DNA of 64,000 nucleotides from an uncultured Flavobacteriaceae bacterium (lineage in GTDB: Bacteria > Bacteroidota > Bacteroidia > Flavobacteriales > Flavobacteriaceae). Numbering within the stretch: position 1 is the first letter of the stretch; each line of letters opens with the position of its first letter. The position numbers and the translations under genes were made by a program. The stretch is taken from assembly GCA_947497245.1 (NCBI GenBank), contig CANMFO010000004.1:119759-183758 (forward strand), written 5' to 3'. The notes below the pieces were generated by a model that worked only from the letters and a program-made list of their open reading frames with translations, searched no databases and was not told the DNA's origin. Shown here one piece after another: positions 22,750 through 38,104 of the stretch.

Positions 22750-25700
22750 ATGCGCAGCCTAGCCATCCTTCTCTTGTTAGCCGGCACCCATACGGCCATG
22801 GGCCAAGAGGCCAATAGCCTGCTTTGGGAGGTTTCGGGGAACGGCCTTTCCCAAAGTTCGTACCTCTACGGTACCATGCACGTGAGCAAACGTATTGCCT
22901 TTCGTTTGGACGATGTGTTCTACGAGGCCCTGGACCAAAGTGAAGTGGTGGCCCTGGAGTCCGACCCGGGCACCTGGCTCGAGAACGGCGATCTTATGGG
23001 CTTTATGGGATACGGCCGCGGCAAAGGGTTCTATTCCAAGGGCTTTTATAGCCGCCCCTTTGCGGTGAAAAACCCGCGAAAGGAGGAAATGGCGGCCTAC
23101 CTGGCCTTCGACGACAGCCGCGTGAACGGTATTCTGTACCGCAGCAATGAGAATTCCCAGAATTTTGAGGAAGAGACCTACCTGGACATGTTCATCTACC
23201 AGTCCGGCAAAAAGTTCGGAAAGCCCGTACTGGCCCTGGAAGACCTGGAGGAGTCCGCGGCCCTGGTAGGACGCGCCAGTCTGAACCCGATGAAGCAAAA
23301 GCCGGATGAATGGCTCCAAAAAAAAATGCAGCAGCAAGATTTTATGAGCTTGTTGCAGGATGCCTATCGCGATCGCAACATCAACCTTCTCGATTCCATC
23401 GATAAGGGGATGTACACCGATCACTATCTGGAGAACATGCTCTTCATACGCAACCGGAACATGGCCGAACGGTTGGATTCGGTAATCCGGACCGCAAGGA
23501 CCTTTACCGGTATCGGTGCGGCACACCTGCCCGGAAAGAAAGGCGTCATTGCCATGTTGCGGAACATGGGCTATACCGTAGAGCCCTTGTTGTCCAGGGC
23601 GACCTCGAAAGGAAGAAGGATCAAGGAGAAACTGGAACGGTACATCAGGGAAAACGAGTACAGCGCCATGGGTCCGGACGATGACTTTTTTAAGGTCGCC
23701 CTGCCCAATAAGCTCTATCCCGTGTCGGAGGCCCCCAATACGGTCTACGTGTCCCCCGATCTGGCCAACGGCAGCTACGTGATGGTCAACCGTATCCCCA
23801 CCTTCGCCCATCTGAAACGGGAATCGGTCTTTGGCCTGGACGATTTGGACGGCATGCTGTTCGAGAACATCCCGGGAAAGATCCTGGAGAAGGTCCGGTT
23901 CGAGCGAAACGGTTTTACCGGGATCGATATCAAGAACCAACTGAAGAACGGCGACCACCAGCGCTACCATATCTATGTGACCCCCTTGGAGATCCTTATT
24001 TTCAAGATGGGCGGTGATGGGGATTATGTGGTACAGCATTCCGATACCATTTTTAACAGCATCGAATTCAAAAAGCTGGGCAAGGGAAAGGTGACCGTAA
24101 CTTCGGGCCATGGCGATTTTGAGGTGCGGATGCCCTCCCTCCACAGTTTTACCAACCGTTCGAGGCCCGGCGACCGCTTGGTACAGGGATATGATTCCAT
24201 TTCGGACAGCTATTACTTCCTGCGGAAGAGCACCCTGAACGATTTCAATCATGTGGAGGAGGACACCTTTGAACTGAAACAGGTACAGAAACGGTTCTAC
24301 CAGGACCTGAAACTGAAGCCGGTGTACGATGGGTTCAAAGGAACTTCGCTCACCTCAAGGGCGATGATGGATTCGCTTACGGGGAAGCAGCTGCACCTGA
24401 GATCTACCTTCAAACGGGGCGATTACTATCTGATGGGGGTGGTGACCCGGGACGATACCGAGGCCGGGACCTATTTCGATTCCTTCAAGATAAAACCAAC
24501 AGAATATGCCGAAACCTTTGAAAAGGTGATCGACACGGCCCTGTTCTTCAGCACGCTAAGCACGGTCAAACCGCCCAAGTTCGTGGAGAACAGCAATATG
24601 TACCTCAACGGCCGCAACCGGCCCAAACCCTACAATGCCTATAACAAAAAAACGGTGTACCAGAACGGGAACAACGAGGCGGTGACCGTGGAGCTCAACA
24701 AATCGCACGATTTTATGATGTTCCCTGGCATCGATTCGGTCTGGGCCCTGCGGAAAAAGCTGTACGCCCAAAAGCGGTTCCTGATACGTGGGGAACGGGA
24801 CAGCAGCTACGCGGACGGGCACCACGAGCTGGAACTTACCCTGACCGATACGGCGACCTCGCGCGGGATATTGATCAAAAACGTACTGCGGGGCGGACTG
24901 CTGTACGAACTCAAGGCACAGGTAGATACCCTGGAGGCCCCCAGCCCCTTTGTCACGGCATTTTTTGACAACTTCAAGCTTTTGGACACCCTGATCGGAA
25001 AGGACATCCTGACCGACAGGACCCCTGATTTTTTCCGGGCCCTTCGAAAGAACGACAGTATACTGGGCAGTGGCTTGAACTTCATCCATTTTGAAAGAAA
25101 ACATGTGGACTCGCTGAAGCATTACATCGCCAATTTCGAATATCCGGAAGACAAAAAATACCTGCAGGCCCACCTCATCTCAAAATTGGGCCAGATCGAG
25201 GACCCACAAGTGGTGCCCTTCTTAAGATCGTTCTACGGCCGTTCGTACAACAATTCGGGTGCCCAGACCAAAATTTTGCAGGCGGTGAGCTGCAAGTCCG
25301 ATGAGGCCTCGGCCGCCCTTTTGCTGGAACTGTTGGCGAAGGACCTGCCGCTGGTATCGAACACCCTGGAGATCAACAAGATCTTCAGGCCCTATCTGGA
25401 CAGCCTCCCGCTGGCAAAAAAATTGTATCCAGAGCTGTTGGACTACAGTACCATCGAGGAATACAAATCGCCCATTTTTTCCATTTTGGCCAAGCTGCAG
25501 GCCAAGGGGCTGGCCAAACCGGGGAGCTATAAAAAGTACCGCAGGCAGATCCTGAACGATGCCAAGATCCAGCTCAAAAGGGAACTGGGCAGCAGCAGGG
25601 ATGCCACCACCGACGCCAACTACTACAACAATTCCCGAAAGACCCGGGGCAGGGTACTGGAAGATTACGCCATTTTGCTCTACCCGTTCAGAAAGGACAA

Positions 25701-26274
25701 AAACGTGCGGCAGTTCTTCGACCGGCTGCTATTGGTCAAGGACCGGCGCATACGAACCACCTATGCCATGTTGGTGGCCAAGGAGGGCGGCCCCGTGCCC
25801 GATGGAATGTTCCGGGAGCTGGCAGGCGATATCAACAGTAGGGCCATGTTGTTCAATAAACTGAAGCGCATCAAAAAATCGTACCTGTTCCCATCGGAAT
25901 TCCGGAACCCCCGGTTTTTGGCCGAATCGTCGCTCTATGCGAAGGGCCGTTTCAACGAAAAGCAGGATTCGCTCCAATTTATCGGACAGCGGCCCCTGCG
26001 GTACCGCGGGAAAGCGCTGACCGGCTATTACTTCAAGACCCGTGACAACGAAAACTACGATGGCAACTTCAATATCAACCTGGTCGTTTTTGAAAACGGA
26101 AAGGGGTTGACCACCAAGCCGTACTACAAGAAAGAGGGGGTGCGCATCGAGGACACCGACACCGATGCCGAGGCGATCGGGTTCGTGACCGAAGAGTTCC
26201 TTCTAAAGGACCGGCCCCGGGCCGAGGTGTACCGTCCCAATGCCTATGGCGGCTATGGGTTTCATGGGTACTAG
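22750..26274 (+). CDS. TraB/GumN-family domain protein with a ~850-aa C-terminal extension (1174 aa)
   Basis: Signal peptide, then LLWEVSGNGLSQSSYLYGTMHV and GAAHLPG, which mark TraB/GumN. I cannot assign the rest of the protein. Confidence 0.6.
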   Translation: MRSLAILLLLAGTHTAMGQEANSLLWEVSGNGLSQSSYLYGTMHVSKRIAFRLDDVFYEALDQSEVVALESDPGTWLENGDLMGFMGYGRGKGFYSKGFYSRPFAVKNPRKEEMAAYLAFDDSRVNGILYRSNENSQNFEEETYLDMFIYQSGKKFGKPVLALEDLEESAALVGRASLNPMKQKPDEWLQKKMQQQDFMSLLQDAYRDRNINLLDSIDKGMYTDHYLENMLFIRNRNMAERLDSVIRTARTFTGIGAAHLPGKKGVIAMLRNMGYTVEPLLSRATSKGRRIKEKLERYIRENEYSAMGPDDDFFKVALPNKLYPVSEAPNTVYVSPDLANGSYVMVNRIPTFAHLKRESVFGLDDLDGMLFENIPGKILEKVRFERNGFTGIDIKNQLKNGDHQRYHIYVTPLEILIFKMGGDGDYVVQHSDTIFNSIEFKKLGKGKVTVTSGHGDFEVRMPSLHSFTNRSRPGDRLVQGYDSISDSYYFLRKSTLNDFNHVEEDTFELKQVQKRFYQDLKLKPVYDGFKGTSLTSRAMMDSLTGKQLHLRSTFKRGDYYLMGVVTRDDTEAGTYFDSFKIKPTEYAETFEKVIDTALFFSTLSTVKPPKFVENSNMYLNGRNRPKPYNAYNKKTVYQNGNNEAVTVELNKSHDFMMFPGIDSVWALRKKLYAQKRFLIRGERDSSYADGHHELELTLTDTATSRGILIKNVLRGGLLYELKAQVDTLEAPSPFVTAFFDNFKLLDTLIGKDILTDRTPDFFRALRKNDSILGSGLNFIHFERKHVDSLKHYIANFEYPEDKKYLQAHLISKLGQIEDPQVVPFLRSFYGRSYNNSGAQTKILQAVSCKSDEASAALLLELLAKDLPLVSNTLEINKIFRPYLDSLPLAKKLYPELLDYSTIEEYKSPIFSILAKLQAKGLAKPGSYKKYRRQILNDAKIQLKRELGSSRDATTDANYYNNSRKTRGRVLEDYAILLYPFRKDKNVRQFFDRLLLVKDRRIRTTYAMLVAKEGGPVPDGMFRELAGDINSRAMLFNKLKRIKKSYLFPSEFRNPRFLAESSLYAKGRFNEKQDSLQFIGQRPLRYRGKALTGYYFKTRDNENYDGNFNINLVVFENGKGLTTKPYYKKEGVRIEDTDTDAEAIGFVTEEFLLKDRPRAEVYRPNAYGGYGFHGY

Positions 26275-26315
26275 GCATGCCCATCGCTCCCCGGCCCCTT
26301 AAGAAGGCGTCCACT

Positions 26316-26513
26316 GATTTTCAAAAGCACTTCCGCCCATTGTCAAGAAGACTTTCAGTGATTATCAAGAGGACATTCAGCGATTGTCAAGAAGACTTTC
26401 AGTGATTATCAAGAAGACATTCAGCGATTGTCAAGAAGACTTTCAGTGATTATCAAGAAGACATTCGGCGATTGTCAAGAAGACTTTCAGCGATTATCAA
26501 GAAAACTTAGAGG
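26316..26513. repeat. tandem array of nine 22-bp units with strictly alternating A/B variants (44-bp higher-order unit x4)
   Basis: A is GATTGTCAAGAAGACTTTCAGT and B is GATTATCAAGAAGACATTCAGC (19/22 identical). Units begin at 26316 (degenerate), 26338, 26360, 26382, 26404, 26426, 26448, 26470 and 26492 (degenerate). There are no spacers. Confidence 0.95.
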
Positions 26514-26627
26514 GAGACTTTGAAAAAAAGCTCCCTAAGGCTACCTTGGGGCAAAACAAATCTTTGGCGGACCTTCACCCAAGGAGCTTGCCCCAAAGCT
26601 CCCAAGTGGGCGAAAGATCTCTTTTTG

Positions 26628-28310
26628 TCACTGGTCCACGGCAGTCTTCAAGCTGTCCGGAACTGTCTGTGGAACGGGGGTGGGCAAGGAATCCGCCGCA
26701 ATACTGTCGAGCAGTTGTACGGGCCGCATATCGCTATCTTGTTTCAAGGGATAAAGGTCGCTGTCGGACAGCCGCTCCGAAGCCTTCCAGGTCTCTCCCA
26801 ATTGGTGCAGTATGGTCGCCGTCCATTGCGAGGGATGCTTGGCATCGATCCATATCACATCGCGGTACTCGGCATCGACCAGGGCCAGGTCGGGGGTGGC
26901 GGCACCATCGAACTGCTTGCTGCTATCGCGGACCGCGGCGACCGTGCCGAGGACGAACAGGCGTTTTTTTCCGGCGATGTATTTGATGAAGGGCCGGAAC
27001 TCGACCGGTCTGTTGGCCGACCAATCGTACTCTTTTCTCGATTCCACGACCTTCAAGGGCATGGCGGAAACCCCTGCAAAACCTTCCTTTTTGGCAGAAT
27101 GGTTATAGTAGTACAGTTTGTCGGTACCATCTGCGGGCACCATGACGCTAAAGGCCAAACTGGTGCGCTCGTCGCCGATGGGCTCCAGCCCGAACCAATG
27201 GTAGAGCCCATTGAGGGCACTGACCTTCATCCCATCGAAATCGAAATCGGTGACATAGGGCTGCTGGTTCTGGTCCTCGGGCAGTTCGGGGATCTTCACC
27301 GCCGTCTTCATGTTCCAGGGCAAGGGGTCGGTAAAGCCGCCCAGAAACTGGAGCGACTGCGCCTGGATCCGCGATATTTTCTCCGCCAGGGTGTTCTGTC
27401 CCTTGAGGTAGGGGTGGTCCTTGATCTCGGATCGCGGGATATAGGTGCCCTTTCCAATGGTGACGCGCTCCAGATAGTCCCCAAGGTCGTGCTCCCCCGC
27501 ATCGATGACCATTACCCCGCCGTAGGTCGGGTAGGGGAAGAAGAACCCCTGCCACTTGATGAGGTTGACCACCTGCACCCACTTGCCCGTGTCGTTTTTC
27601 ATATAGAACACATCACTGGGTTCCATGGTGAACAGTTGAAAAAGGTTGAAGCGCTGTACCACGGCGTTGTAGGTGTTGCGGCTGAAGGCCAGGGATTCGC
27701 CAATGGAAAAGGTGACCGGGACCCTATTTTCGTTGGAGAACCTGGGGAACGGGGAGGTGCTCTCCACGGTAAAGATCTCCTCGCTGTTGTCGCTCATGCG
27801 CTGCCAGGTATACTCCTTGGCGGGCTGTACGGCCATGGTCCATTGGTTACTGCCATCGAGCCGTACCAATTGTGGCAGGGAAACTTCCTGAGTTTCGCCA
27901 ATGGATTCGTAGGCCATGGTGACGATATTGTTGAAGGGCTGGATCCGCTCGTTCCGGGTGAGGGGCAGCTCGTCCAGTTCTACCAGGTCCAGATTCCTGT
28001 AAACGTTATAGGTCTGCATGTACTGGTAGAGGTTCAGTTTCCATCCGAAGAACCAGAGCGTGACAAAGAAGGCCGCCATACCGGCCAAGATCAACACCCT
28101 TTTGCCCGCCCCCACCGCATTCCTAAATTTGGACAGGGCGAACCAAAGAAAGCCCGTGGCCAACAACAGGACAAAGCAGTACTTTCTCAAGAACAGCAAC
28201 GCGGGCTGGTAGTCGTCCCTAAGAAAGAAGAGCAGCAGCAACAGCACAATACCACCAACGGTGATGATACGCTTCTGTTTTTTTCCCTTTCGCCAGTATG
28301 TCTTGATCAT
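26628..28310 (-). CDS. membrane protein: 3 N-terminal TM helices plus a ~440-aa predicted extracytoplasmic domain, unassigned
   Basis: Lys/Arg-rich N-terminus (MIKTYWRKGKKQKR), then three hydrophobic helices and a large domain of normal composition. It is the last gene of the AAA cluster. Confidence 0.7.
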   Translation of the reverse strand: MIKTYWRKGKKQKRIITVGGIVLLLLLFFLRDDYQPALLFLRKYCFVLLLATGFLWFALSKFRNAVGAGKRVLILAGMAAFFVTLWFFGWKLNLYQYMQTYNVYRNLDLVELDELPLTRNERIQPFNNIVTMAYESIGETQEVSLPQLVRLDGSNQWTMAVQPAKEYTWQRMSDNSEEIFTVESTSPFPRFSNENRVPVTFSIGESLAFSRNTYNAVVQRFNLFQLFTMEPSDVFYMKNDTGKWVQVVNLIKWQGFFFPYPTYGGVMVIDAGEHDLGDYLERVTIGKGTYIPRSEIKDHPYLKGQNTLAEKISRIQAQSLQFLGGFTDPLPWNMKTAVKIPELPEDQNQQPYVTDFDFDGMKVSALNGLYHWFGLEPIGDERTSLAFSVMVPADGTDKLYYYNHSAKKEGFAGVSAMPLKVVESRKEYDWSANRPVEFRPFIKYIAGKKRLFVLGTVAAVRDSSKQFDGAATPDLALVDAEYRDVIWIDAKHPSQWTATILHQLGETWKASERLSDSDLYPLKQDSDMRPVQLLDSIAADSLPTPVPQTVPDSLKTAVDQ

Positions 28311-28348
28311 TTTTTTGATGTTTTAGGAGCTGTTCCATATGTTTTATG

Positions 28349-28876
28349 CTACTTGATCATACCCTTGTCCTTCAGCCGGTCCCTGGCCGATTTGGGGGGG
28401 TCGGCCCCGGCCTCGATCTTCCCGGCCTCCGGTGCGTCCCCTATTTTCTGGGCAGGGGCCTCTTTTTCATCGCCCTCGGCCAGGTCTTCGAGAAGTTCCC
28501 TACCCTTGTCGAACGCTTTTTCAAGGTTTTCCCTGCTGGCGCCGTCCTTGGCCAGAATAAAGGCGGAGGCCACGTAGGTGCCGATAAGCGTGCCCACGAT
28601 GGCGGAGGCGAAATATTGGACAAAGAACATGTTGATCGGCGTGACAAAGGTGACCACCGCCGCCCCCAACGAGAAGAGCAGCGTGACCCATACCAGGCGC
28701 AGCAGGAAGGCCTGCCGGTGCACAAAGCCTTTTTGGTCCTCGGGTTTCATCTGCAGTTCCCTCGAATGGGTGATCTTGTTCGCCAGGCGATACAGCTTGT
28801 TGCTTTTGGATTCCCTCCAATACCATACGATCCCGAAGAGGATGGCAAGGACAAATACGATGATTTCCAGTGTCAT
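28349..28876 (-). CDS. small 3-TM membrane protein with a charged C-terminal tail, unassigned
   Basis: 175 aa with three hydrophobic helices and the tail ...LAEGDEKEAPAQKIGDAPEAGKIEAGADPPKSARDRLKDKGMIK. Its ATG overlaps the upstream stop (ATGA at 28873-28876). Confidence 0.65.
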   Translation of the reverse strand: MTLEIIVFVLAILFGIVWYWRESKSNKLYRLANKITHSRELQMKPEDQKGFVHRQAFLLRLVWVTLLFSLGAAVVTFVTPINMFFVQYFASAIVGTLIGTYVASAFILAKDGASRENLEKAFDKGRELLEDLAEGDEKEAPAQKIGDAPEAGKIEAGADPPKSARDRLKDKGMIK

Positions 28877-30123
28877 GATGGTTGATTGTTATTGTTCAAT
28901 AAAATGTTCTCTATGACCCATTCCTGATAGGAGGGGTCCCAGTCCTCGTACAATTGGTAAAAGGTTTCCTTGTCGTACCAGTATAAATGTAGCGGATCTT
29001 TGGGCATGATCTTCACCAAGAGCTTCCAAATGAGCTCCCTGTGCTCCTCCTCCAAAGAGGAATGCGGCCTGTTCAGTGCCTTGCGGTACTGCACGTCGAC
29101 AAATTCCTCGATCTTGAGGTCGCGATCAACGGTCAGGCGCTGCAGATAGATCTCGACTCCGGATATTTTTTTCTTGGCGGCCAGGGGCAGTTTATCCAGG
29201 TACCTTTTGAACAGCATCTGGTTGTCCATGATCTCTTTGAACGAGTGCTCCTTTTTGGTGATGTGCTCCGAAAAGAGGTGTTTTTTGATCCGTTCGTACC
29301 GCGCCGTCCGTAGGGCATTTTTGAGGTTGCCCTCCACGATCAGGTGGCGCTCCAGGGTATCCACCAGTTCGTCGTGGCCCAAATGGAAGAGCAGCACGTC
29401 GTGCGCCGTGTCGCTGATGGCCTTTTTGAACCATTTTGGGTCTTCGAAGACGATGATGGTCTGGATGAAGTCCTTTAGGACAAAAACGCCTCCAAATGCC
29501 CGGGTGTGGAACGAACCCACCTTTAGGGCAATGGGATCCAAGCGCAGCTTCCGCTTCCGGAGGTCCCCGTACTTTTTGGCCGATTCCAGCAGTTTCCTGT
29601 GCACGTCGCGGTCGATGAAATTGTGTTTCCGGTTGAACCACTGGATCAGGGCCCTTTGTTCCTGTTGCTTTTCGGCGAGCTTGTCCAAAAGGGTAAAGCG
29701 GACGGTGATCTTGTCGTACCGTAGCAGATCAAAGGGATCGAAAAAGGTATCGATGTCCTGGTCCAGGTGCACGATCACCGCGGCATCTTTGGTAATGTCC
29801 CTGATCTCGCGGGCGTAGGCCGCGAAAACGGCGCCCATCACGTCGCGGTCAAAACTGTGGGAGGGCATGTGCACGGGTTTGTCCTTTTGGGCGGGCGAGA
29901 GGAGGATGGCGTTGACATTGGCCTCCCCTACGTTGAGGTACCGATTGTCCTTTTTTTCTACGGCGACCTCGGGGCTCCATCCCATCCCGTCAATGGAAAA
30001 CTGTTTTAGCTTGGTGGCCTTGACGCCCAAAAGGGCCAGGCAGTCGTTGTACCGTGCCACCAAAGACCCCGAGAGCGTTACCAACGCCCCGTCGATCAGA
30101 CCGGCTTCCCTTAGTTTTTCCAT
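28873..30123 (-). CDS. hypothetical soluble protein (416 aa), unassigned
   Basis: Long ORF of ordinary composition that starts 3 nt after the AAA gene's stop. It has no TM segment and no motif I recognise. Confidence 0.7.
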   Translation of the reverse strand: MEKLREAGLIDGALVTLSGSLVARYNDCLALLGVKATKLKQFSIDGMGWSPEVAVEKKDNRYLNVGEANVNAILLSPAQKDKPVHMPSHSFDRDVMGAVFAAYAREIRDITKDAAVIVHLDQDIDTFFDPFDLLRYDKITVRFTLLDKLAEKQQEQRALIQWFNRKHNFIDRDVHRKLLESAKKYGDLRKRKLRLDPIALKVGSFHTRAFGGVFVLKDFIQTIIVFEDPKWFKKAISDTAHDVLLFHLGHDELVDTLERHLIVEGNLKNALRTARYERIKKHLFSEHITKKEHSFKEIMDNQMLFKRYLDKLPLAAKKKISGVEIYLQRLTVDRDLKIEEFVDVQYRKALNRPHSSLEEEHRELIWKLLVKIMPKDPLHLYWYDKETFYQLYEDWDPSYQEWVIENILLNNNNQPS

Positions 30124-30126
30124 TTT

Positions 30127-32094
30127 CTATTTGTTTCCCCCGTTTTCAAAAATTCGGTTGGCCTCCAGGTTCACGTTCATATCGTGCACGCGGCCATCGA
30201 CCTTGCGCTTGAAGTCGGTATCGGCGATGGTCGCCACATTGTCCAGGTAGCGGACCACTTCCTGCCGACGGATGTCCGAGAAATCGAGCCCCTTCATATT
30301 CTGTTTCATCAGGTCCTGCAACATGGCGAACTTGGTCGCATAGTCTTTTTTAAAGTAGCGAGAGGCATCGCTGAACCAATCCTCCGGCAGGTCAAAATCG
30401 GTCAGGCGCAACGATATGGCGCTCTGGATGTTGCGGATGTCCCTGGAGGAGAAGAACGGAAAGGCCTTTTGTATATTTTTATAGAGCTCGGCAAAGAACA
30501 TATGGGTGCCCGTCCCGTGCTTGGCCTCGGTCTGTTCGTAGATTTCAAGTACCTTCTCTTCCGTGGGCCGGTCTGATCGGCCCAAGATCTCGCCCAGGTT
30601 CTTGGCCAGTCCCTGTTCGCTCAGGAATTCGTACCCGTCCGGATTTTTGATATTGACAAAATCGGGCATGCTTTCGTTCAGCTTGCGCCACCACAGGTAA
30701 TCCTGGTCCACAAAATCGGGAAGGGTCCGGGCACCATCTATCTTGAACCGCCCCTGCACCCGGGATATCACGGCCTTGTCCAACATTTCGGGCAGGTTGG
30801 TAAAGAGCCCTATGGAGCTGTTGCCGTAATTGATGGCATAGGCCCCTTCGGTGTAGCGCAAAAACACTCCGATCACCTCCTTTACCCCGGCCGATACCCC
30901 TTGGGCCGTTCGTTCCTGCAAATTGTTCTCCGCATCGTCGATGGGGGCAAAGATCAGCTTGTTGGGGTCCTGCAGGGGCTTCATCCACTGCACCATCTTT
31001 TCTGCGGAACCGCCCTGGAAGGTAGAGATCAGTGTGTCGGGCATGGGATGGAACAAGAAGGGGATCTCCAGTTCGTCACAATGTTCCTTCAAGCGCGTCG
31101 CGATTGCGGCGATCAACATGCTCTTTCCCGTTCCGGGGATGCCATAGCCCATAAAAACGGGCATGAAGCCCCCCAATTCCTGAAAGGGGTTCTTTTTGGC
31201 CACAAAATCGTAGCTGAGCATCCTTTCCGTCAACCGACGGGCGAAATGTTTCGCATCGCGGTTCCCGACGATCTCCTCGAACTGGATTTTGTTGAACTCC
31301 ACACTTTTGGCCGTTCCCTCCAGTACATTTTCCCATCCGGAAACGGCGAACCCGCTCTTCTCCAATTTATAGGTACGGTCCGTTATGGTCTCGGTATGTT
31401 CCAAACTGTTGATCCGCATCTGTATTTCCGAGATCAGGGCCTCGAAAAACACCACGGTAAAGTTCAGTACCTCCACATCGGAAGTAATGATCTCGGGATG
31501 GTCGAGGTACTTGTCAAAATAAAAGAGCATACAGGAAATTCCCTTTAAGGGAGACATCAACGAGACCTCGGGAATACCGGCGAATTTGTTCTTCATGACA
31601 CTGAGGTCGTCCGAGACCAAGGGTTTCAGATCGAAAAGGATCTTATAGGCGGTACCGTACAGCATAAAGGCGGTGGCGGTGTGCAATTTGGAATCGTATT
31701 CGCGGCGCAGGGGGGCATCCAGGGAACCCTTGCGCTCGTTCAGGGACGAAAGTCCGGAGGCGTCGTAATAACTATCCTTGAGCCAGATGCCCATGGCGAG
31801 CCCCTCTTGCAGGGAGTACAGTGCCTGGTTCAAGTGTACGGGAATGGCCACGGAGTCGGGCAACAGCCTCTTTTTAAGGGACAGGATGGTCTTGGATACC
31901 GAAATGACCTCATTGGCCGAAGTGCCCTGGGCCTTGGACAAGTACAGTAGGATGGAGCTGTCCTTTTTGTCCTTGTTGCGGCTCTTTGCCTTTCCGCCCT
32001 GCTCCCATTGCACCCCCTTTAGATAGGAAGTGGCCTCGTTGCGAAGGGCTTCGAGCTCGTTCAATTTGATGGGAAAGGTACTGTTGTGTTCCAT
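30127..32094 (-). CDS. AAA+ ATPase (classic AAA clade) with an unassigned ~270-aa N-terminal domain
   Basis: Walker A is GYGIPGTGKS (aa 316-325) and Walker B is LIFAPIDDAE (aa 380-389). Also present are LDKAVISRVQGRFKI (arginine/SRH-like) and a lid-like FFSSRDIRNIQSAISLR. The TAATG at 32092-32096 shares nt 32094 between the upstream stop and this start. Confidence 0.85.
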   Translation of the reverse strand: MEHNSTFPIKLNELEALRNEATSYLKGVQWEQGGKAKSRNKDKKDSSILLYLSKAQGTSANEVISVSKTILSLKKRLLPDSVAIPVHLNQALYSLQEGLAMGIWLKDSYYDASGLSSLNERKGSLDAPLRREYDSKLHTATAFMLYGTAYKILFDLKPLVSDDLSVMKNKFAGIPEVSLMSPLKGISCMLFYFDKYLDHPEIITSDVEVLNFTVVFFEALISEIQMRINSLEHTETITDRTYKLEKSGFAVSGWENVLEGTAKSVEFNKIQFEEIVGNRDAKHFARRLTERMLSYDFVAKKNPFQELGGFMPVFMGYGIPGTGKSMLIAAIATRLKEHCDELEIPFLFHPMPDTLISTFQGGSAEKMVQWMKPLQDPNKLIFAPIDDAENNLQERTAQGVSAGVKEVIGVFLRYTEGAYAINYGNSSIGLFTNLPEMLDKAVISRVQGRFKIDGARTLPDFVDQDYLWWRKLNESMPDFVNIKNPDGYEFLSEQGLAKNLGEILGRSDRPTEEKVLEIYEQTEAKHGTGTHMFFAELYKNIQKAFPFFSSRDIRNIQSAISLRLTDFDLPEDWFSDASRYFKKDYATKFAMLQDLMKQNMKGLDFSDIRRQEVVRYLDNVATIADTDFKRKVDGRVHDMNVNLEANRIFENGGNK

Positions 32095-33149
32095 TAATCC
32101 AGTTTTAATGCGGGAACCTCTATCGGTTCCTGTGTTAATAAATGCAACGCTTCGGGAATATTGTCGTAAAAGACCTGTAGGACCCGGTGCGGAGCGAATA
32201 GATAAGTGTCCTTGGTGGTGGGCGCCCAGACCTGGAGGTACTGTTTGCTGAAAAAGCCGCCCTGCGAAAAATTCCCGGTGGAAAGGGTCTCATCGATCCG
32301 CATGGACAGCGCAAAGGCCGAGAGGTCCAGGGTCTTTTCCACGATGGCCTTGAGCACGGTATGGGTCACCAGCAGTTCGTCCTTGGCGAACACATTGTGC
32401 AAAGGCCCCAGGTCCAGTTTCCTTACTTTTTTGGGCCAGAGGTTGGGCAACTTTTTGTCAATGGCATAGGCCATCATGTCCAAGTCCATGTTTCGGTCCG
32501 CAGTGTTCTCCAGGACATCGTAGATCTTCTGCCTGTAGTCTTCAAGTTTTTCCTTGTACAGGTCAAAGTACATGAAGCATATGAAAGGGCGGTTATGGGT
32601 CACATCGTAGAATGCCCAACTGACCATGTACTGTGCTTCAGCCCCTTCGCCCACCTCTAAGATCTTTCCCTGCACGAAGCGCTTGAAAATGTACTGTTGC
32701 TCCACCGAGGAATAATAGATGATGGAGGCCGCCTGTTGCAGCCTGCGTTCCGGGATCGGCCGTTTGTCCCTCAAGAGCGATTCCAGGAACTCGGCCTTTA
32801 CCGTCCCGATTTCGGGCAACTTTTGGATGTGCTGCTGCTTGAGTTCCAGGTCGTTGAACAGGTACCGGAACTCCAAATAGTTGGGAAAGCCCGATTCGGT
32901 AAGGTCGATGCGCATTTTTTCCTCGTCGTCATAGAGGTATTTTATGCGAAAGGCCTCCAGTGAATACGTCATCAACTCACAGTATTGTTTTACCAGGGCG
33001 GCCTCGAGCCCATTGCATATCCGCTTTTCGGCGATGCTGTCGACGAGTCCGTCAAAGGCGTGGGTCACAATTTTAAAGTACACCGAATACTGTTCCTTGG
33101 TCTCAAGAACGGCGCTATCCAATGGTGTGACTATTTGGTTGATGGACAT
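32094..33149 (-). CDS. hypothetical soluble protein (351 aa), unassigned
   Basis: ATG at 33149. Its stop shares one nucleotide with the AAA start codon. No TM segment and no recognised motif. Confidence 0.7.
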   Translation of the reverse strand: MSINQIVTPLDSAVLETKEQYSVYFKIVTHAFDGLVDSIAEKRICNGLEAALVKQYCELMTYSLEAFRIKYLYDDEEKMRIDLTESGFPNYLEFRYLFNDLELKQQHIQKLPEIGTVKAEFLESLLRDKRPIPERRLQQAASIIYYSSVEQQYIFKRFVQGKILEVGEGAEAQYMVSWAFYDVTHNRPFICFMYFDLYKEKLEDYRQKIYDVLENTADRNMDLDMMAYAIDKKLPNLWPKKVRKLDLGPLHNVFAKDELLVTHTVLKAIVEKTLDLSAFALSMRIDETLSTGNFSQGGFFSKQYLQVWAPTTKDTYLFAPHRVLQVFYDNIPEALHLLTQEPIEVPALKLD

Positions 33150-33317
33150 TTGGGCGGATTTTAAAATGTCTTATATTGATTTTTAGATGGAACCGCGGGG
33201 CCGCGGGAAACCCGGGACCTGGCGGTGCCCGAAACGGAGACCTCCCTGCAATGCCCTGGCCACTTTCGGCACCGGCCATGGCCGTACGGGGGGCTCAGGT
33301 TCTACAAAAAACCCCTG

Positions 33318-34664
33318 TCAGCTCAGCAGGTCGTCCTCTACGGGGGGCTTCGGAGGTTCCGGAGTTTCGTCGCCATCCCCGGCGCCCGGGGGGGCGTTGC
33401 CATCGGAGGCGTAGTATTCCTCGAAAATCTCCTTCATGTCGATACCGTAGCGGTCGGCGAAGTTCTTTTGGATGTCGGCATCCTTGACCCGGATCTCCTG
33501 AAGCGATTCGGCATAGCTGGAGTAAACGCCCTGCATCACTTTTTCGTGGACGGGGATATTGTCCATCATTTCCTGTCTCGCCTTGGCGCTCGCGGTGTGC
33601 ATAGCGGCCAGGGTCTGCCCGATGTGTTCGTCGGTCTTCACCCCGAGGTGTTCCAAAATGGCGGCAAATTCCTGGTCGGTCCGGGCTTTTAGGGCCACTA
33701 CGTAGCCGTCATAATATTTTAGACGTTCATCGGTATCGCTCTTTAGCTTGGCCCGGTGCGTCTGCAAATTGCTTCTCAGGGAGGTCAGTACCTTGATGGT
33801 CAGGTTGTGCTTGTGCACAAAGCTGTCCTTACTGGCCGCTAGCGTGGTATAGGCGTTTTTGAGACCTTCCAGTTCCTCTACCTTTTGTTCAATGATGGTC
33901 ACCTTACCGATCGCTTCGGAATAGGCCGCCGATTGTTTGTCCGCTATTTCCTCGAGCGCCTGCCTTGCCTGTTTCAACAGGGCGTACTGCTCCTCCAGTT
34001 TGGCCTCGGTCTCCTTCTTTTTCTCTAGGGCCTTGGTGTGGTTCTTGCTCGCCTCCACGATGGCCACCTGTAATTTGTCCTCGACCTCTTTGATCTCGAC
34101 CTCCCTGTTCTTTAAGCGGGCCACGGCCGCCTGGCTCTTATAGGAAAGCTCGTTCAGAAGGGTTTGGATATCGGCCGATTCGATGCGTTCCTGGAACATG
34201 GCCTTGGCCTTCATGTCGGCCCCATCGCGTACTTTTTGGGCAGCGTCCAGCTCGGCCTGGCGTTTTCTGATCCTCGATTTGCGCCCCCAAAGGTTGTTCC
34301 ACCAATTGTCCTTTACCTTTTCGGCATCCTCAAGTGCCAATTTGGCGCGGTCCAAACCTTTTTGGGCATCGTCGATCACTTTTTGTTCGGCCGCGTTCAG
34401 GGTGGAGAATTTTTCAAAGATGATACCGACCTCATCTTGGTAATCGGTGAGGTCCTTTATGGCATCCAAAAGGGTAGATCGGTCCTTTTCCGCCATGCCC
34501 ACCACGTCATCGAGGGTGGCGTTCAGGATCTTTTGGCGTACTTCGGGGTCATCTTCTTGGGCAAGCTTGGACTTCATCTGGTCCACCGCCTTTCCCCAAT
34601 TGACATCTACTTGTTCCTGTTTGGAGCTGGAATCGGTCTCTAATAAATCAAAATCGTCGGCCAT
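33318..34664 (-). CDS. acidic coiled-coil protein (448 aa) with a Pro-rich acidic C-terminal tail, unassigned
   Basis: Long E/K/A/Q/L-rich helical stretches, for example KALEKKKETEAKLEEQYALLKQARQALEEIADKQ. The tail reads SDGNAPPGAGDGDETPEPPKPPVEDDLLS. Confidence 0.7.
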   Translation of the reverse strand: MADDFDLLETDSSSKQEQVDVNWGKAVDQMKSKLAQEDDPEVRQKILNATLDDVVGMAEKDRSTLLDAIKDLTDYQDEVGIIFEKFSTLNAAEQKVIDDAQKGLDRAKLALEDAEKVKDNWWNNLWGRKSRIRKRQAELDAAQKVRDGADMKAKAMFQERIESADIQTLLNELSYKSQAAVARLKNREVEIKEVEDKLQVAIVEASKNHTKALEKKKETEAKLEEQYALLKQARQALEEIADKQSAAYSEAIGKVTIIEQKVEELEGLKNAYTTLAASKDSFVHKHNLTIKVLTSLRSNLQTHRAKLKSDTDERLKYYDGYVVALKARTDQEFAAILEHLGVKTDEHIGQTLAAMHTASAKARQEMMDNIPVHEKVMQGVYSSYAESLQEIRVKDADIQKNFADRYGIDMKEIFEEYYASDGNAPPGAGDGDETPEPPKPPVEDDLLS

Positions 34665-34909
34665 GGGAATGGTTTTTTGTTTTAAGGTTTAATGAAATAG
34701 AACCGGGGGTTCTTAATGTGTTCCAATTTCGGTAAAAAAACCGAGTTGTAAAAGCACTATCACCGAAGTGTTACATATTATGAGTAGTGGAAATTTTGGA
34801 TTTGTTACGGCCCGCCCCTTTTTTTTATGGGGACACTTGAAAGAAACGCTTCCCGCCAATGTTCTTTTCCATGGGATTAATTGCTATTTTTGATGGAAAA
34901 TAATTAGGG

Positions 34910-35749
34910 ATGGTCCATTCTAAAATGGTAATGTTATCCATGCTACTGACCGGAGTCTGTTTTGGGCAGGGCATCACCTGTTCCCCTGTGGACAAACAAG
35001 CGGTCGAGAACAAGACCAGGGCCACCAAAGACCTCTTGGTGGACGGTTTTGGCAAGACGGTGGTCGCTGTGGGGAAGACCTTTCTCGGTACCCCGTATGT
35101 CGCCAAGACCCTGGAAGTGGGTGAGACCGAAACCCTGGTGATCAACTTGCAGGGACTCGACTGTACCACTTATGTGGAGAATGTGCTGGCTTTTGGGCTG
35201 TTGCTCAAAAAGGGAAAGACGGATTTTGGTTCCTTTGCCAAGACCTTGGAACATATCCGCTACAAAGACGGAAAACTGCAAGGGTATGCCTCGCGGCTGC
35301 ATTATTTTTCCGAATGGATCGCCAACAACGGTGCCAAGGGATTGCTAAAGGACGTGACCTCGGAGATCGGGGGGGTGGAAATTTCCAAGGAGATCAACTT
35401 TATGAGCACACATCGCGATCTGTACCCGTTTCTGAAGGATGAGGTGAACTTTGAAAAGATCCGGGCCTCCGAAGCCTATCTCAATGGACGGACCATTTGT
35501 ATCCTGCCCCAGGATATGATCGGACCGAACGAACATCTCCTAAGGTCGGGGGATATTATTGCGCTGACCACTTCTATAAAGGGATTGGATATTACCCATA
35601 CCGGTATCGCAACACGTGAAAAGGATGGAAGGATACATTTGCTCCACGCCTCCTCTTCCGGACAGGTGGAGGTTTCGGAACTCCCCCTTGTGGATTATTT
35701 GAAAAAGGTAAAAAAGAACACCGGGATCATGGTCGCACGGCCCCTGTAG
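34910..35749 (+). CDS. DUF1460-like (amidase/transglutaminase-like) secreted protein
   Basis: Signal peptide, then LQGLDCTTYVENVLA, which is the conserved Cys context of DUF1460 as I recall it. Confidence 0.55.
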   Translation: MVHSKMVMLSMLLTGVCFGQGITCSPVDKQAVENKTRATKDLLVDGFGKTVVAVGKTFLGTPYVAKTLEVGETETLVINLQGLDCTTYVENVLAFGLLLKKGKTDFGSFAKTLEHIRYKDGKLQGYASRLHYFSEWIANNGAKGLLKDVTSEIGGVEISKEINFMSTHRDLYPFLKDEVNFEKIRASEAYLNGRTICILPQDMIGPNEHLLRSGDIIALTTSIKGLDITHTGIATREKDGRIHLLHASSSGQVEVSELPLVDYLKKVKKNTGIMVARPL

Positions 35750-36847: not shown

Positions 36848-38104
36848 ATGAAGGATTACCATATTTCGAGACACAGTTCGTTCTACACCATTGGCCTGAA
36901 TTACCGAAAAGCGGATGCCGGGTTGCGGGGTAAATTCAGTTTGGACGAGGCGGGTATGGAAACCATATTGCTAGAGGCCAAAGCACAGGATATCGATGGG
37001 CTTTTGGTCACATCCACCTGTAACCGAACGGAACTGCACGGCTTTGCACAGCACCCATTCCAGTTGATCAAACTGCTTTGCGACAATACCGAGGGCACGG
37101 TAGAGGAATTTCAGGAGGTGGCCTATGTGTATAAAAACAACGATGCCATCAACCATCTTTTTAGGGTGGGCACGGGTTTGGACAGCCAAATTTTAGGCGA
37201 TTTCGAGATTATCAGCCAATTGAGGTCCAGCTTTAACCGATCCAAAAAAGTGGGGCTGGCGAATCCGTTTGTGGAACGTTTGTGCAATGCGGTGATCCAG
37301 GCGAGCAAACGCATCAAGAACGAGACGGAGATTTCCTCTGGCACCACTTCGGTCGCCTTTGCCTCCGTACAGTACATTCTGAACAAGGTGGAAGAGGTGT
37401 CCCAAAAGAACATACTGTTGTTCGGAACGGGCAAGATCGGGAGGAACACCTGTGAAAACCTGGTCAAGCATACCAAGAACAGCCATATTACCCTGATCAA
37501 CCGCACCAAGGACAAGGCGGACAGGATTGCCGGCAAGTTTAACCTTGTGGTCAAAAATTACGGTGACCTTCAGACCGAGATCCGTAAATCGGATGTGTTG
37601 ATCGTGGCTACCGGTGCCCAAACACCTACCATTTCGAAAGAATTGATCCATACCAAAAAGCCATTGCTGATCTTGGATCTCTCCGTTCCCAAGAACGTAT
37701 CCGACGATGTTTCCGAACTCGAACATATAACGGTGATCCACCTGGACCAGCTCTCCCAATTGACCGATGACACCTTGGCGAGGAGAAAGCGGTTTATCCC
37801 AGAGGCGGAAGCGATCATTGAGGTAATCAAGGACGACTTTATCCAATGGCTCGAAACCCGAAAGTTCGCGCCGGTCATAAAGGCCCTAAAGCAGAAATTG
37901 AAGACCATGAAGGAGGAGGAGCTCGATTACCAGTCCAAGAAACAAACCGATTTCGACGCCGAGCAGGCCGATGCCATTTCCAATAGGATCATCCAAAAGA
38001 TCACCAAACAGTTTGCCAACCACCTCAAAGACGATTCTGTGGATGCCGACGGCAGCCTTGAACTCATCCAAAAGGTTTTCCAACTCGAAATAGACCCCAA
38101 ATGA
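36848..38104 (+). CDS. hemA: glutamyl-tRNA reductase
   Basis: LLVTSTCNRTELHG carries the catalytic Cys motif. Also QILGDFEIISQ and the NAD-binding LLFGTGKIG. There is an ATGA overlap with hemC at 38101-38104. Confidence 0.9.
   Translation: MKDYHISRHSSFYTIGLNYRKADAGLRGKFSLDEAGMETILLEAKAQDIDGLLVTSTCNRTELHGFAQHPFQLIKLLCDNTEGTVEEFQEVAYVYKNNDAINHLFRVGTGLDSQILGDFEIISQLRSSFNRSKKVGLANPFVERLCNAVIQASKRIKNETEISSGTTSVAFASVQYILNKVEEVSQKNILLFGTGKIGRNTCENLVKHTKNSHITLINRTKDKADRIAGKFNLVVKNYGDLQTEIRKSDVLIVATGAQTPTISKELIHTKKPLLILDLSVPKNVSDDVSELEHITVIHLDQLSQLTDDTLARRKRFIPEAEAIIEVIKDDFIQWLETRKFAPVIKALKQKLKTMKEEELDYQSKKQTDFDAEQADAISNRIIQKITKQFANHLKDDSVDADGSLELIQKVFQLEIDPK

Follow-up and report, generated by a model that had tools for sequence, protein, structure and literature searches.

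A conserved six-gene module of Flavobacteriaceae and the putative membrane-associated AAA+ machine that it may encode

Background

A stretch of 64,000 nucleotides (nt) from an uncultured Flavobacteriaceae bacterium (GenBank assembly GCA_947497245.1, contig CANMFO010000004.1, positions 119,759 to 183,758; referred to below as the window) contains six open reading frames (ORFs) in the same orientation between positions 26628 and 34664, one of which encodes an ATPase of the AAA type and two of which encode membrane proteins. The locus raises the question of whether the six genes form a unit and, if they do, to which cellular system the unit belongs. The reading that we favour, tentatively and with less than even confidence, is that they are a conserved chromosomal operon for an uncharacterised, inner-membrane-anchored AAA+ remodelling machine with a housekeeping, envelope-related function, as sequence comparison and model structures suggest. 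If this is correct, a widespread and unstudied multi-subunit AAA+ machine is present in Bacteroidota, in Alpha- and Gammaproteobacteria and possibly in the Candidate Phyla Radiation (CPR). Knowledge of its function could uncover a new principle in the upkeep of the inner membrane or envelope, and would give a role to DUF6638, a family without known function. Tractable carriers of the genes exist (Sinorhizobium meliloti, Vibrio).

Gene set and junctions

The ORF listing of the window gives six ORFs, all on the minus strand, over 26628-34664, with products of 448, 351, 655, 416, 175 and 560 amino acids (aa); an earlier inspection of the letters alone (the original prediction) had placed them at the same coordinates and with the same lengths. 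We refer to the genes and their products as P1 to P6, and all features of the module described below lie on the minus strand. P1 (33318..34664), the first gene of the module, encodes an acidic, all-helical protein of 448 aa; P2 (32094..33149), a soluble protein of 351 aa from a widespread family outside Pfam; P3 (30127..32094), a divergent classic-clade AAA ATPase of 655 aa; P4 (28873..30123), a basic soluble protein of 416 aa that belongs to Pfam DUF6638; P5 (28349..28876), a membrane protein of 175 aa with three transmembrane (TM) segments; and P6 (26628..28310), a membrane protein of 560 aa with three TM segments and a large predicted periplasmic domain. The four junctions of the original prediction were confirmed by direct reading. 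The stop codon of P2 and the start codon of P3 meet in ATTAATGGA, a TAATG in which nt 32094 is common to both codons; P3 and P4 are joined as TAG-AAA-ATG, that is, with a 3-nt gap; the stop codon of P4 and the start codon of P5 form an ATGA overlap in TCATGACA; and 38 nt separate P5 from P6. The spacer between P1 and P2 is 168 nt long. The six genes have one orientation, and from P2 to P5 each gene overlaps the next or is separated from it by 3 nt; they are regarded as a real unit that is probably co-translated. The GC content of the module equals that of the surrounding DNA. The GC-rich P1-P2 spacer was considered as a structured RNA or attenuator, and this was rejected (fold z = -1.2).

What had been said of the products agrees for the most part with these assignments. 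The long acidic coiled-coil protein is P1 (isoelectric point (pI) 5.0, all-helical), the 655-aa product is the only one with motifs that could be named by eye (Walker A/B and an arginine region, now joined by an AAA profile), and the 3-TM mini-protein and the 3-TM protein with a large external domain are P5 and P6. The two soluble proteins described as free of motifs are P2 and P4, both of which lack TM segments; the second, however, belongs to DUF6638, an uncharacterised Pfam family, so that the statement that five of the six products had no recognisable family has to be corrected.

Conservation of the gene order

The Flavobacteriaceae were covered by a scan of one genome per species, and the gene order was read by tblastn with all six products. 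The scan gave 37 genome loci, all in Flavobacteriaceae, with P4 identities from 81% (Pelagihabitans) to about 43% (Kordia), and the six-gene order is kept at every one of them as far as the contig reaches, while the flanks differ. Of the metagenome contigs that reach 12 kb or more, 34 of 38 also keep the arrangement; that scan was made with a 10-sequence P2 alignment and reached relatives at 52-75% identity only. The original prediction had left room for a cluster that is syntenic nowhere else. Synteny was instead found at these loci, on these contigs and in other phyla, and a conserved gene order with varying flanks excludes a chance juxtaposition of the six genes.

The haem genes that flank the module in the window are shared by the ten closest genomes only. 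In those genomes, identity is 90-93% for P1 and 83-93% for the AAA protein, as compared with 81-85% for hemA and 77-83% for hemH. By these values, P1 and the motor are under stronger constraint than the neighbouring housekeeping enzymes of haem biosynthesis in marine Flavobacteriaceae, which points to a core cellular function. The flanks in other genera are an acyl-CoA dehydrogenase gene (which recurs as far as Kordia) and genes for a patatin-like lipase, AnmK, a Porin_10 protein and a GNAT protein. The neighbourhood of the module is a stable chromosomal one and not a defence island.

The genes are also found together outside the family. In a plasmid collection searched by tblastn, DUF6638 and the AAA gene occur in the same replicons in all ten records with a match (Sinorhizobium, Shinella, Rhizobium and Vibrio). 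The order there is a gene for a helical protein of about 360 aa, one for a protein of about 375 aa, one for an AAA protein of about 636 aa, and DUF6638. By blastp the first is homologous to P1 (E 2e-9 and 8e-4), the second to P2 (about 1e-12), the third to P3 (1e-61 to 1e-72) and the fourth to P4 (1e-30). A gene for a DUF2333 membrane protein directly follows DUF6638 in Sinorhizobium and Shinella, and the modules of R. leguminosarum and Vibrio consist of four genes only, with no adjacent membrane gene. The Sinorhizobium genes occur in hundreds of assemblies.

More distant lineages were reached through the contigs of P2-family representatives that are 22-40% identical to P2. The upstream neighbour is P1-like in six of six cases where one is present; the AAA gene lies directly downstream of P2 in L122, L123, L124, L125, L126, L128, L129, L131 and L133; and DUF6638 comes next wherever the contig goes on. 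The full six-gene layout is seen in L126 and L127, and the six-gene order also in L133. Overlaps between P2 and the AAA gene, between the AAA gene and DUF6638, and between DUF6638 and P5 recur in lineages that are only 22-32% identical, and in L122, L123, L126, L128 and L129 the P2 stop overlaps the AAA start by 11 nt. One metagenome-assembled genome (L123, GCA_022763265.1), which is labelled Candidatus Pacebacteria/Paceibacterota (CPR) and is by that label a candidate member, carries the four-gene core. The core is P1-P2-AAA-DUF6638, and P5/P6 is an old, frequent but dispensable membrane module that is replaced by DUF2333 in Rhizobiaceae. The core appears from its homologues to occur in at least three phyla, so the range across Bacteroidota that had been envisaged was too narrow. 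P1 and P6 appear, by similarity searches, to have no relatives outside the module.

Some of these loci have features of their own. In Kordia algicida (L037 6457-9964; similar gaps in L019-L032), four same-strand genes lie between the AAA gene and DUF6638, for an amidohydrolase-SnoaL fusion, a SnoaL protein, an S26 signal-peptidase-like protein and an unknown protein of 212 aa. In S. meliloti Ak57 (L038 7060-8805), an ISRm16 transposase gene and a small endonuclease-domain gene split the AAA gene from DUF6638; the 3.7-Mb record is labelled 'pSymB' and looks chromosomal (trpE, fhs, tdk and cho genes). The L123 module adjoins adk, map, ndk and infC-rpmI-rplT, and its P1-like gene is split into parts of 113 and 334 aa. 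A homologue search was made with a concatenated profile (P1-like, P2-like and DUF6638, from the Sinorhizobium and Vibrio rows). Among the matches listed, two proteins scored; these are chimeras from metagenomes, with frameshifts and Arg/Pro-rich stretches read out of frame, and do not speak for a P1-P2 fusion.

The AAA ATPase

Judged by its matches, the generic AAA domain of P3 is the sole link of the module to anything characterised. Residues 317-452 match Pfam AAA (PF00004) with E 1.2e-8, above the gathering score. A cross-phylum P3 profile finds VAT as the best PDB sequence (6e-10), followed by Cdc48, Pch2, Rpt4 and Vps4 at about 1e-6, and these alignments are confined to residues 314-455. 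With the Sinorhizobium and Vibrio AAA proteins, P3 is 27-28% identical over the full length. The family-specific N-terminal domain (1-260) and C-terminal domain (455-655, about 200 residues) have no Pfam match, including none to MIT at E<=1, and the protein has no TM segment and no protease domain.

The Walker A motif GIPGTGKS (residues 318-325, 31120..31143) is invariant from Bacteroidota to Proteobacteria. A pore-loop-1-like stretch, S-T-(F/Y)-Q-G-(G/K)-S (residues 357-363, 31006..31026), is aligned with K-W/Y-x-G-E-S of VAT; S357, Q360, G361 and S363 are invariant across phyla and residue 359 is F or Y. The Walker B motif LIFAPIDDAE (residues 380-389, 30928..30957) is non-canonical, with DD instead of DE, and its I385, D386 and D387 are invariant in Bacteroidota and Proteobacteria. 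The second region of homology (30748..30780), with R445 and R449 as candidate Arg fingers together with D439 and A441, is likewise invariant across phyla, as are the sensor-1 FTN and a sensor-2-like P-F-(S/T)-x-R-x-x-x-N-I. The features of a classic-clade AAA protein are thus all present (Walker A, Walker B in the variant form IDD, sensor-1 Asn, Arg fingers and an aromatic-x-Gly pore loop), and the motor domain appears from its motifs to keep every catalytic and pore element of the threading AAA unfoldases.

The helical protein

P1 has no TM segment or signal peptide and, with identities of 72-93% across Flavobacteriaceae genera, is the most conserved component of the module. It belongs to no Pfam, NCBIfam, PADLOC or PHROG family, and its profile matches in the deep metagenomic lineages have E values of 1e-19 to 1e-86. 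Three conserved blocks stand out. The N-terminal acidic-dileucine motif (A/S)D(D/E)FDLLET (34635..34661) is invariant in 27 orthologues and recurs as DTFDLLE (L131), DSFDLLD (L132) and DATDLLD (L133). The Trp-rich basic block D(N/T)WWNNLWGRK(S/A)(R/K)I (34266..34310) is invariant as well and is proposed as a membrane contact; its equivalents elsewhere are again hydrophobic and basic, namely KWNIFG(M/A)RDR in L122 and L123, FIGIFSRQK in Sinorhizobium and VGIFFKKK in Vibrio, the general proteobacterial form being F-I-G-I-F-S-R/K-x-K. The extreme C-terminus, DDLL(S/G) (33321..33335), is conserved to at least 90% behind a variable Pro/Gly/acidic linker, and corresponds to NDLLD (L131), NDLLGG (L132) and AEELIG (L133). 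The long P1 forms of the divergent lineages accordingly begin with D-x-F-D-L-L-(E/D) and end with (D/E)(D/E)-L-(L/I). The proteobacterial forms of about 360 aa keep the tip string and lack the tail, the C-terminal motif and an insert of about 50 residues.

The structure of P1 was modelled with AlphaFold2 (AF2) from an alignment of 51 sequences out of about ten lineages. The mean predicted local distance difference test (pLDDT) value is 65.6, with residues from about 90 to 330 at 80-93. This confident core is modelled as a pair of helical hairpins, in one of which the arms are about 75-80 residues long, and D(N/T)WWNNLWGRK sits in the short tip loop between helices 91-116 and 128-163. The C-terminal third is highly conserved and yet poorly modelled, as would be expected if it became folded only upon contact with a partner. 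Foldseek found no significant match to the model; the weak ones (E 0.009-0.13, template-modelling score 0.13-0.29) are generic long coiled coils, F-BAR domains and, repeatedly, pore-forming toxins of the ClyA family. The database labels of P1 orthologues appear to be coiled-coil artefacts: 'microtubule-binding protein' at NCBI, where no NCBIfam or Pfam model matches, and 'chromosome segregation ATPase', 'myosin heavy subunit' and 'SbcCD ATPase subunit' at JGI.

The ClyA-type neighbours bear on an anti-phage or other conflict role; the original prediction had mentioned an anti-phage or other stress role as a possibility. P1 would then be a ClyA-like effector that permeabilises the inner membrane from inside and is released or activated by the AAA protein and sensors, as in abortive infection. 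Proteins of the ClyA family (ClyA, AhlB/C, MakA, Smh, Xax and Nhe) are long bundles of helices whose hydrophobic tip engages membranes. P1 has a hydrophobic, Trp-rich tip, and the weak fold neighbours of its confident core come mostly from that family (AhlC at E 8.7e-3, then MakA, SmhB, AhlB, XaxB, NheA and ClyA). None of these matches is significant (E >= 0.009, template-modelling score 0.17-0.29), though; there is no sequence similarity, including no HBL/HlyE Pfam match in P1, and the P1 gene is chromosomal and highly conserved, lies in an AAA+ operon and does not show a toxin-like distribution. The AAA core has weak hidden Markov model (HMM) similarity (E 5e-4 to 6e-7) to the defence ATPases IetA and TRIP13 (CBASS-associated; CBASS, cyclic-oligonucleotide-based anti-phage signalling system), which does not extend beyond the P-loop core, but the IetS protease, HORMA and CD-NTase partners are absent and the genes do not behave like defence genes in the genomes. 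PADLOC-DB v2 gave only weak AAA-core or coiled-coil matches (IetA, TRIP13, JetC) without partner proteins, and none of its models matches the non-AAA components in the flavobacterial or proteobacterial versions. Mobility is suggested by the shared Vibrio replicon of about 0.9 Mb, the integrase fragments near L133 and the insertion sequence in S. meliloti Ak57; against this, the locus is stable and vertically inherited over many genera between housekeeping flanks, and, generic AAA similarity apart, no relatives were found among PHROG, a phage collection, viral contigs or BFVD. Defence genes are usually less conserved than housekeeping enzymes. P1 and the AAA protein exceed hemA and hemH in conservation and are under very strong purifying selection. 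For these reasons we disfavour an anti-phage role and consider it distinctly improbable.

The soluble partners P2 and P4

A full HMMER scan against 1.84 billion representative proteins gave a P2 family of 247 clusters at 50% identity (E<=1e-3), mostly full length and 152 of them at E<=1e-10; none of the 105 aligned members has a Pfam match. The AF2 model from this 105-sequence alignment has pLDDT 95.8 and a predicted template-modelling score (pTM) of 0.92. It is a two-domain alpha+beta protein with an N-terminal helical bundle and a C-terminal antiparallel sheet with helices. The best PDB match found by Foldseek has E 0.15 and a template-modelling score of 0.16 (a faint T-fold-like similarity), and BFVD gave none. 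The predicted fold of P2 is thus confident and yet absent from the solved structures in PDB.

P4 matches Pfam DUF6638 (PF20343) with E 6.7e-26 (91.6 bits against a cut-off of 27), and all its close homologues carry PF20343; the DUF6638 protein of S. meliloti 1021 has the UniProt accession Q92N41. It is basic (pI 8.5-8.75), and an N-terminal block (R24 Y25 N26 ... D45 G48 S50 P51 ... E56) is invariant across phyla. We found no mention of DUF6638 in the searchable literature. P2 and DUF6638 were considered as paralogues and this was rejected, as no relation was detectable. Like P3, both are without TM segments, and the family profiles of P1, P2, P4 and P6 found nothing below E 0.02 among PDB sequences.

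The membrane proteins P5 and P6

The topology of P5 and P6 was predicted from hydropathy and the positive-inside rule. P5 would have its N-terminus outside; a basic loop in the cytoplasm would follow TM1, and behind the TM2-TM3 hairpin a cytoplasmic tail of 67 residues would end in the basic motif KSAR(D/E)RLKDKG(M/L)(I/L)K (28352..28393), which comes after a variable acidic linker. Orthologues are present in all Flavobacteriaceae loci. A P5-like 3-TM gene overlaps or follows DUF6638 in L122 and L133, the L133 product matching the P5 profile (E 2e-8) and ending in EARKKLDELGL, and position and topology are the same in L126. The N-terminus of P6 is predicted to be basic and cytoplasmic; behind it would come three TM segments (nt 28062-28268) and a periplasmic domain of about 477 residues (nt 26631-28061) with very many invariant residues. 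P6 is 62-87% identical across genera, and L126 has a homologue in the equivalent position (E 2e-74). No Pfam, NCBIfam, PADLOC or PHROG family and no PDB sequence relative was found for either protein, and tblastn of P6 against the plasmid collection gave no match. DUF2333 (PF10095) was tried as a family for P6 and rejected (hhalign probability 0.5%); the searchable literature gave nothing relevant on DUF2333.

With such partners the motor might also serve translocation or extraction. The AAA protein would unfold a client, possibly P1, into or through a P5/P6 conduit, or pull proteins from the inner membrane, by analogy with Bcs1, Msp1, FtsH or the type VII EccA ATPase, with the P6 periplasmic domain at the receiving or output end. 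A classic-clade AAA with a conserved pore loop suits this scheme, and so does the tight coupling of the AAA, DUF6638, P5 and P6 genes; P5 and P6 have no more than six TM helices between them, however, and neither resembles a known channel, and the AAA protein itself is without a membrane anchor or protease domain. The large and very conserved P6 periplasmic domain, and a membrane partner that varies by lineage (DUF2333 in Rhizobiaceae), are what would be expected of an envelope-specific output module, but in Vibrio and R. leguminosarum no membrane gene adjoins the module. The S26 signal-peptidase-like gene inserted in the Kordia operon would agree with translocation, and no secreted-substrate signature was identified. 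Taken together, we regard this alternative as rather unlikely.

Proposed mode of action

For the remodelling machine that we favour, we infer ring formation, threading, the binding partners, membrane binding by P1 and the physiological role as follows. P3 would assemble as a ring ATPase and thread polypeptide via its aromatic pore loop. P2 and P4 would be produced in a fixed ratio with P3 by translational coupling and assist it as cofactors or adaptors; they are regarded as stoichiometric because stop codons overlap start codons across lineages. P1 would be expressed separately, probably in excess, and its own upstream position and the spacer behind it suggest an abundant client or scaffold. 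It would lie on the cytoplasmic membrane face, at the inner leaflet, via the Trp-rich basic tip; a membrane-facing place is suggested by the lack of TM segments and of a signal peptide, by the tip motif of the modelled hairpin, which has equivalents in all lineages, by the conserved termini, and by weak fold neighbours such as the ClyA-family bundles, which insert into membranes, and F-BAR domains. P1 would then be the substrate or scaffold of the motor, with its flexible acidic-dileucine termini as handles. P5, through its basic cytoplasmic tail, and P6, through its periplasmic domain, may tether the machine and couple it to the periplasm, and in Rhizobiaceae the DUF2333 membrane protein would take their place. 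The basic P5 tail and the basic DUF6638 protein are plausible electrostatic partners of the acidic P1.

A housekeeping rather than a defence role is favoured by the conservation of P1 and the AAA protein above hemA and hemH, the housekeeping flanks, and the lack of phage, viral and defence matches. In the cell the module most likely helps to maintain the envelope or membrane, for which the hints are anecdotal: a lone P2 within an AsmA/glycosyltransferase operon near PBP2 and RodA, the AmiA-like amidase beside P1, the Mur ligases and a DUF3298/PdaC-like gene that adjoin the L126 module, AnmK near other copies, and the S26 signal-peptidase-like gene within the Kordia operon. Judging by its locus tag, SMc02733 of S. 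meliloti 1021 is probably either the P2-like gene or the AAA gene of the module, an assignment that is unconfirmed. If it holds, the module would be connected with the envelope regulon of ExoS/ChvI. A gel-shift fragment of the envelope regulator ChvI lies inside SMc02733 (PMC3687685).

A number of points weigh against this reading. The substrate and adaptor assignments follow gene order and motif logic, and the envelope-related neighbours are anecdotal. The P1 model has a mean pLDDT of only 65.6, with a poorly modelled conserved C-terminal third, and with DD in place of DE in Walker B, hydrolysis by P3 could be slow or regulatory. The proteobacterial forms are without the P1 tails and P5/P6, and the handle and anchor parts therefore cannot be universal. 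The Vibrio copies are on a transferable-looking replicon of about 0.88-0.94 Mb that is annotated as a plasmid and is common to V. parahaemolyticus, V. vulnificus, V. cholerae, V. fluvialis and V. antiquarius, and the L133 module lies near integrase fragments. A lone P2 homologue (55% identity; L089 8989-10047, also L092, L097 and L121) lies between an 881-aa AsmA-family gene and family 4 glycosyltransferase (GT4) genes, downstream of PBP2 and RodA, with no P1, AAA, DUF6638, P5 or P6 within 9 kb. In L132 (8558-11867, Flavobacteriales-type), a P1-like/P2-like pair is followed by a gene for the third and fourth domains of GldM, which replaces the AAA gene; the contig ends shortly beyond it. Lastly, no paper bearing on any component was found in the searchable literature.

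Comparison with known systems

The module would work most like the motor-plus-client systems ESCRT-III/Vps4 or Cdc48/NSF and is a member of none. The original prediction had described the likeness to ESCRT-III/Vps4, PspA and TelA as one 'in logic only', which holds: Snf7, PspA_IM30, TelA and MIT have no match at E<=1. Its view that no characterised system fits is also upheld, by Pfam, NCBIfam, PADLOC, PHROG and Foldseek, and NCBIfam and PHROG gave nothing specific for any of the six products.

An ESCRT-III (Snf7-family) subunit has about 200-240 aa with an alpha1-alpha2 hairpin core, and the Vps4-type ATPase has an N-terminal MIT domain. As in ESCRT-III/Vps4 (archaeal CdvB/CdvC), a classic-clade AAA protein is paired here with a putatively membrane-facing helical protein that is separately encoded, probably more abundant, and carries a C-terminal acidic-leucine motif after a flexible linker. 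In contrast, P1 has about 450 aa with an extra N-terminal motif and no Snf7/MIT homology, P3 has unrelated N- and C-domains and the DD Walker B, and the module adds P2 and DUF6638, two further soluble subunits that are obligatory, as well as integral membrane partners of its own.

These likenesses could mean that P1 is a diverged polymer-forming member of the ESCRT-III superfamily, or of PspA/IM30, and P3 a Vps4 orthologue. The C-terminal motif of P1 on its linker does resemble an MIT-interacting motif (MIM), and Vps4 is among the PDB sequence matches (E about 1e-6), with a weak NCBIfam CdvC match (3.6e-4) besides; Vps4 does not outscore VAT, Cdc48, Pch2 and Rpt, however, and the alignments are limited to the AAA core. 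Neither P1 and P3 nor their proteobacterial homologues have a Snf7, PspA_IM30 or MIT Pfam match at E<=1, no ESCRT-III, PspA or Vipp1 protein is among the top 50 Foldseek matches of the partly confident P1 model, P1 is twice as long as an ESCRT-III protein, and the operon is not described in the comparative survey of phage shock protein (PSP) and ESCRT systems (PMC11237479). Homology fails for each defining feature that could be tested, and we hold it to be highly improbable.

A bolder form of the favoured reading, possible but doubtful in our judgement, is that the module is a non-homologous bacterial counterpart of ESCRT-III/Vps4, that is, an ancient multi-phylum machine for membrane remodelling or repair, probably near-essential in marine Flavobacteriaceae, in which a membrane-bound P1 lattice would be assembled and later stripped by the AAA ring via the acidic-dileucine termini, with P5/P6 sensing or acting on the periplasmic side. 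Such a counterpart would use one or more folds not seen in solved structures (that of P2) together with the uncharacterised DUF6638 and P6.

With PspA/IM30 (Vipp1), the module shares a cytoplasmic helical protein, here proposed to lie at the inner membrane face, and small integral membrane partners, and some PspA operons carry AAA+ ATPases (PMC11237479). The gene set is another one, without PspA_IM30 (PF04012), PspB, PspC or an AAA+ protein of the PspF type (a bacterial enhancer-binding protein); Pfam found no PspA_IM30, PspB/PspC, LiaIF or PspF domain in the six products or the flanking genes. The conservation pattern suggests, moreover, a constitutive and not a stress-island role. The TelA (PF05816) HMM had no match at E<=1 in P1 or its homologues.

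As for the threading AAA unfoldases (VAT and Cdc48 with their cofactors, NSF-SNAP-SNARE, Msp1, Bcs1), what is alike is a motor with adaptors that would disassemble a coiled-coil or membrane-associated client, and VAT, Cdc48, Rpt and Vps4 are the nearest solved sequence relatives of the P3 ATPase domain. Cdc48 and NSF have two AAA domains, whereas P3 has a single one with an N-domain that matches no known substrate-recognition domain, and UBX, SNAP and the other known cofactors are unrelated to P2 and DUF6638.

Flanking genes and other features

On one side, the module is flanked in the window by the genes for ferrochelatase and a 1174-aa TraB/GumN protein, and on the other side by those for the AmiA-like amidase, which adjoins P1, and an AraC regulator, followed by putative hemA, hemC/D and hemE. 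In the 1174-aa protein (22750-26274), a TraB/PrgY/GumN domain (E 3e-35) occupies the N-terminal part and some 900 residues without a confident family come after it; the gene is kept beside the module in the closest genomes.

No Rfam family was found in the region 26000-35200 of the window. Scans of the module DNA for sigma-70 promoters and terminators gave nothing informative except a tandem repeat, and the sequence is of the Bacteroidota type and may not fit the model. This array (26339-26508) lies between the convergent P6 and TraB/GumN genes and consists of 7.7 copies of a 22-bp unit, or 3.8 copies of a 44-bp double unit with 97% matches; the repeat unit is absent in 133 of 133 related loci. 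On the minus strand, each 44-bp double unit scores close to the consensus of a sigma-70-like promoter (TTGACA-18-GATAAT).

Between hemA and hemE, a 524-aa ORF (38101-39675) resembles a HemC-HemD fusion (porphobilinogen deaminase/uroporphyrinogen-III synthase), and the haem genes of the window are separated by the six-gene module and its neighbours.

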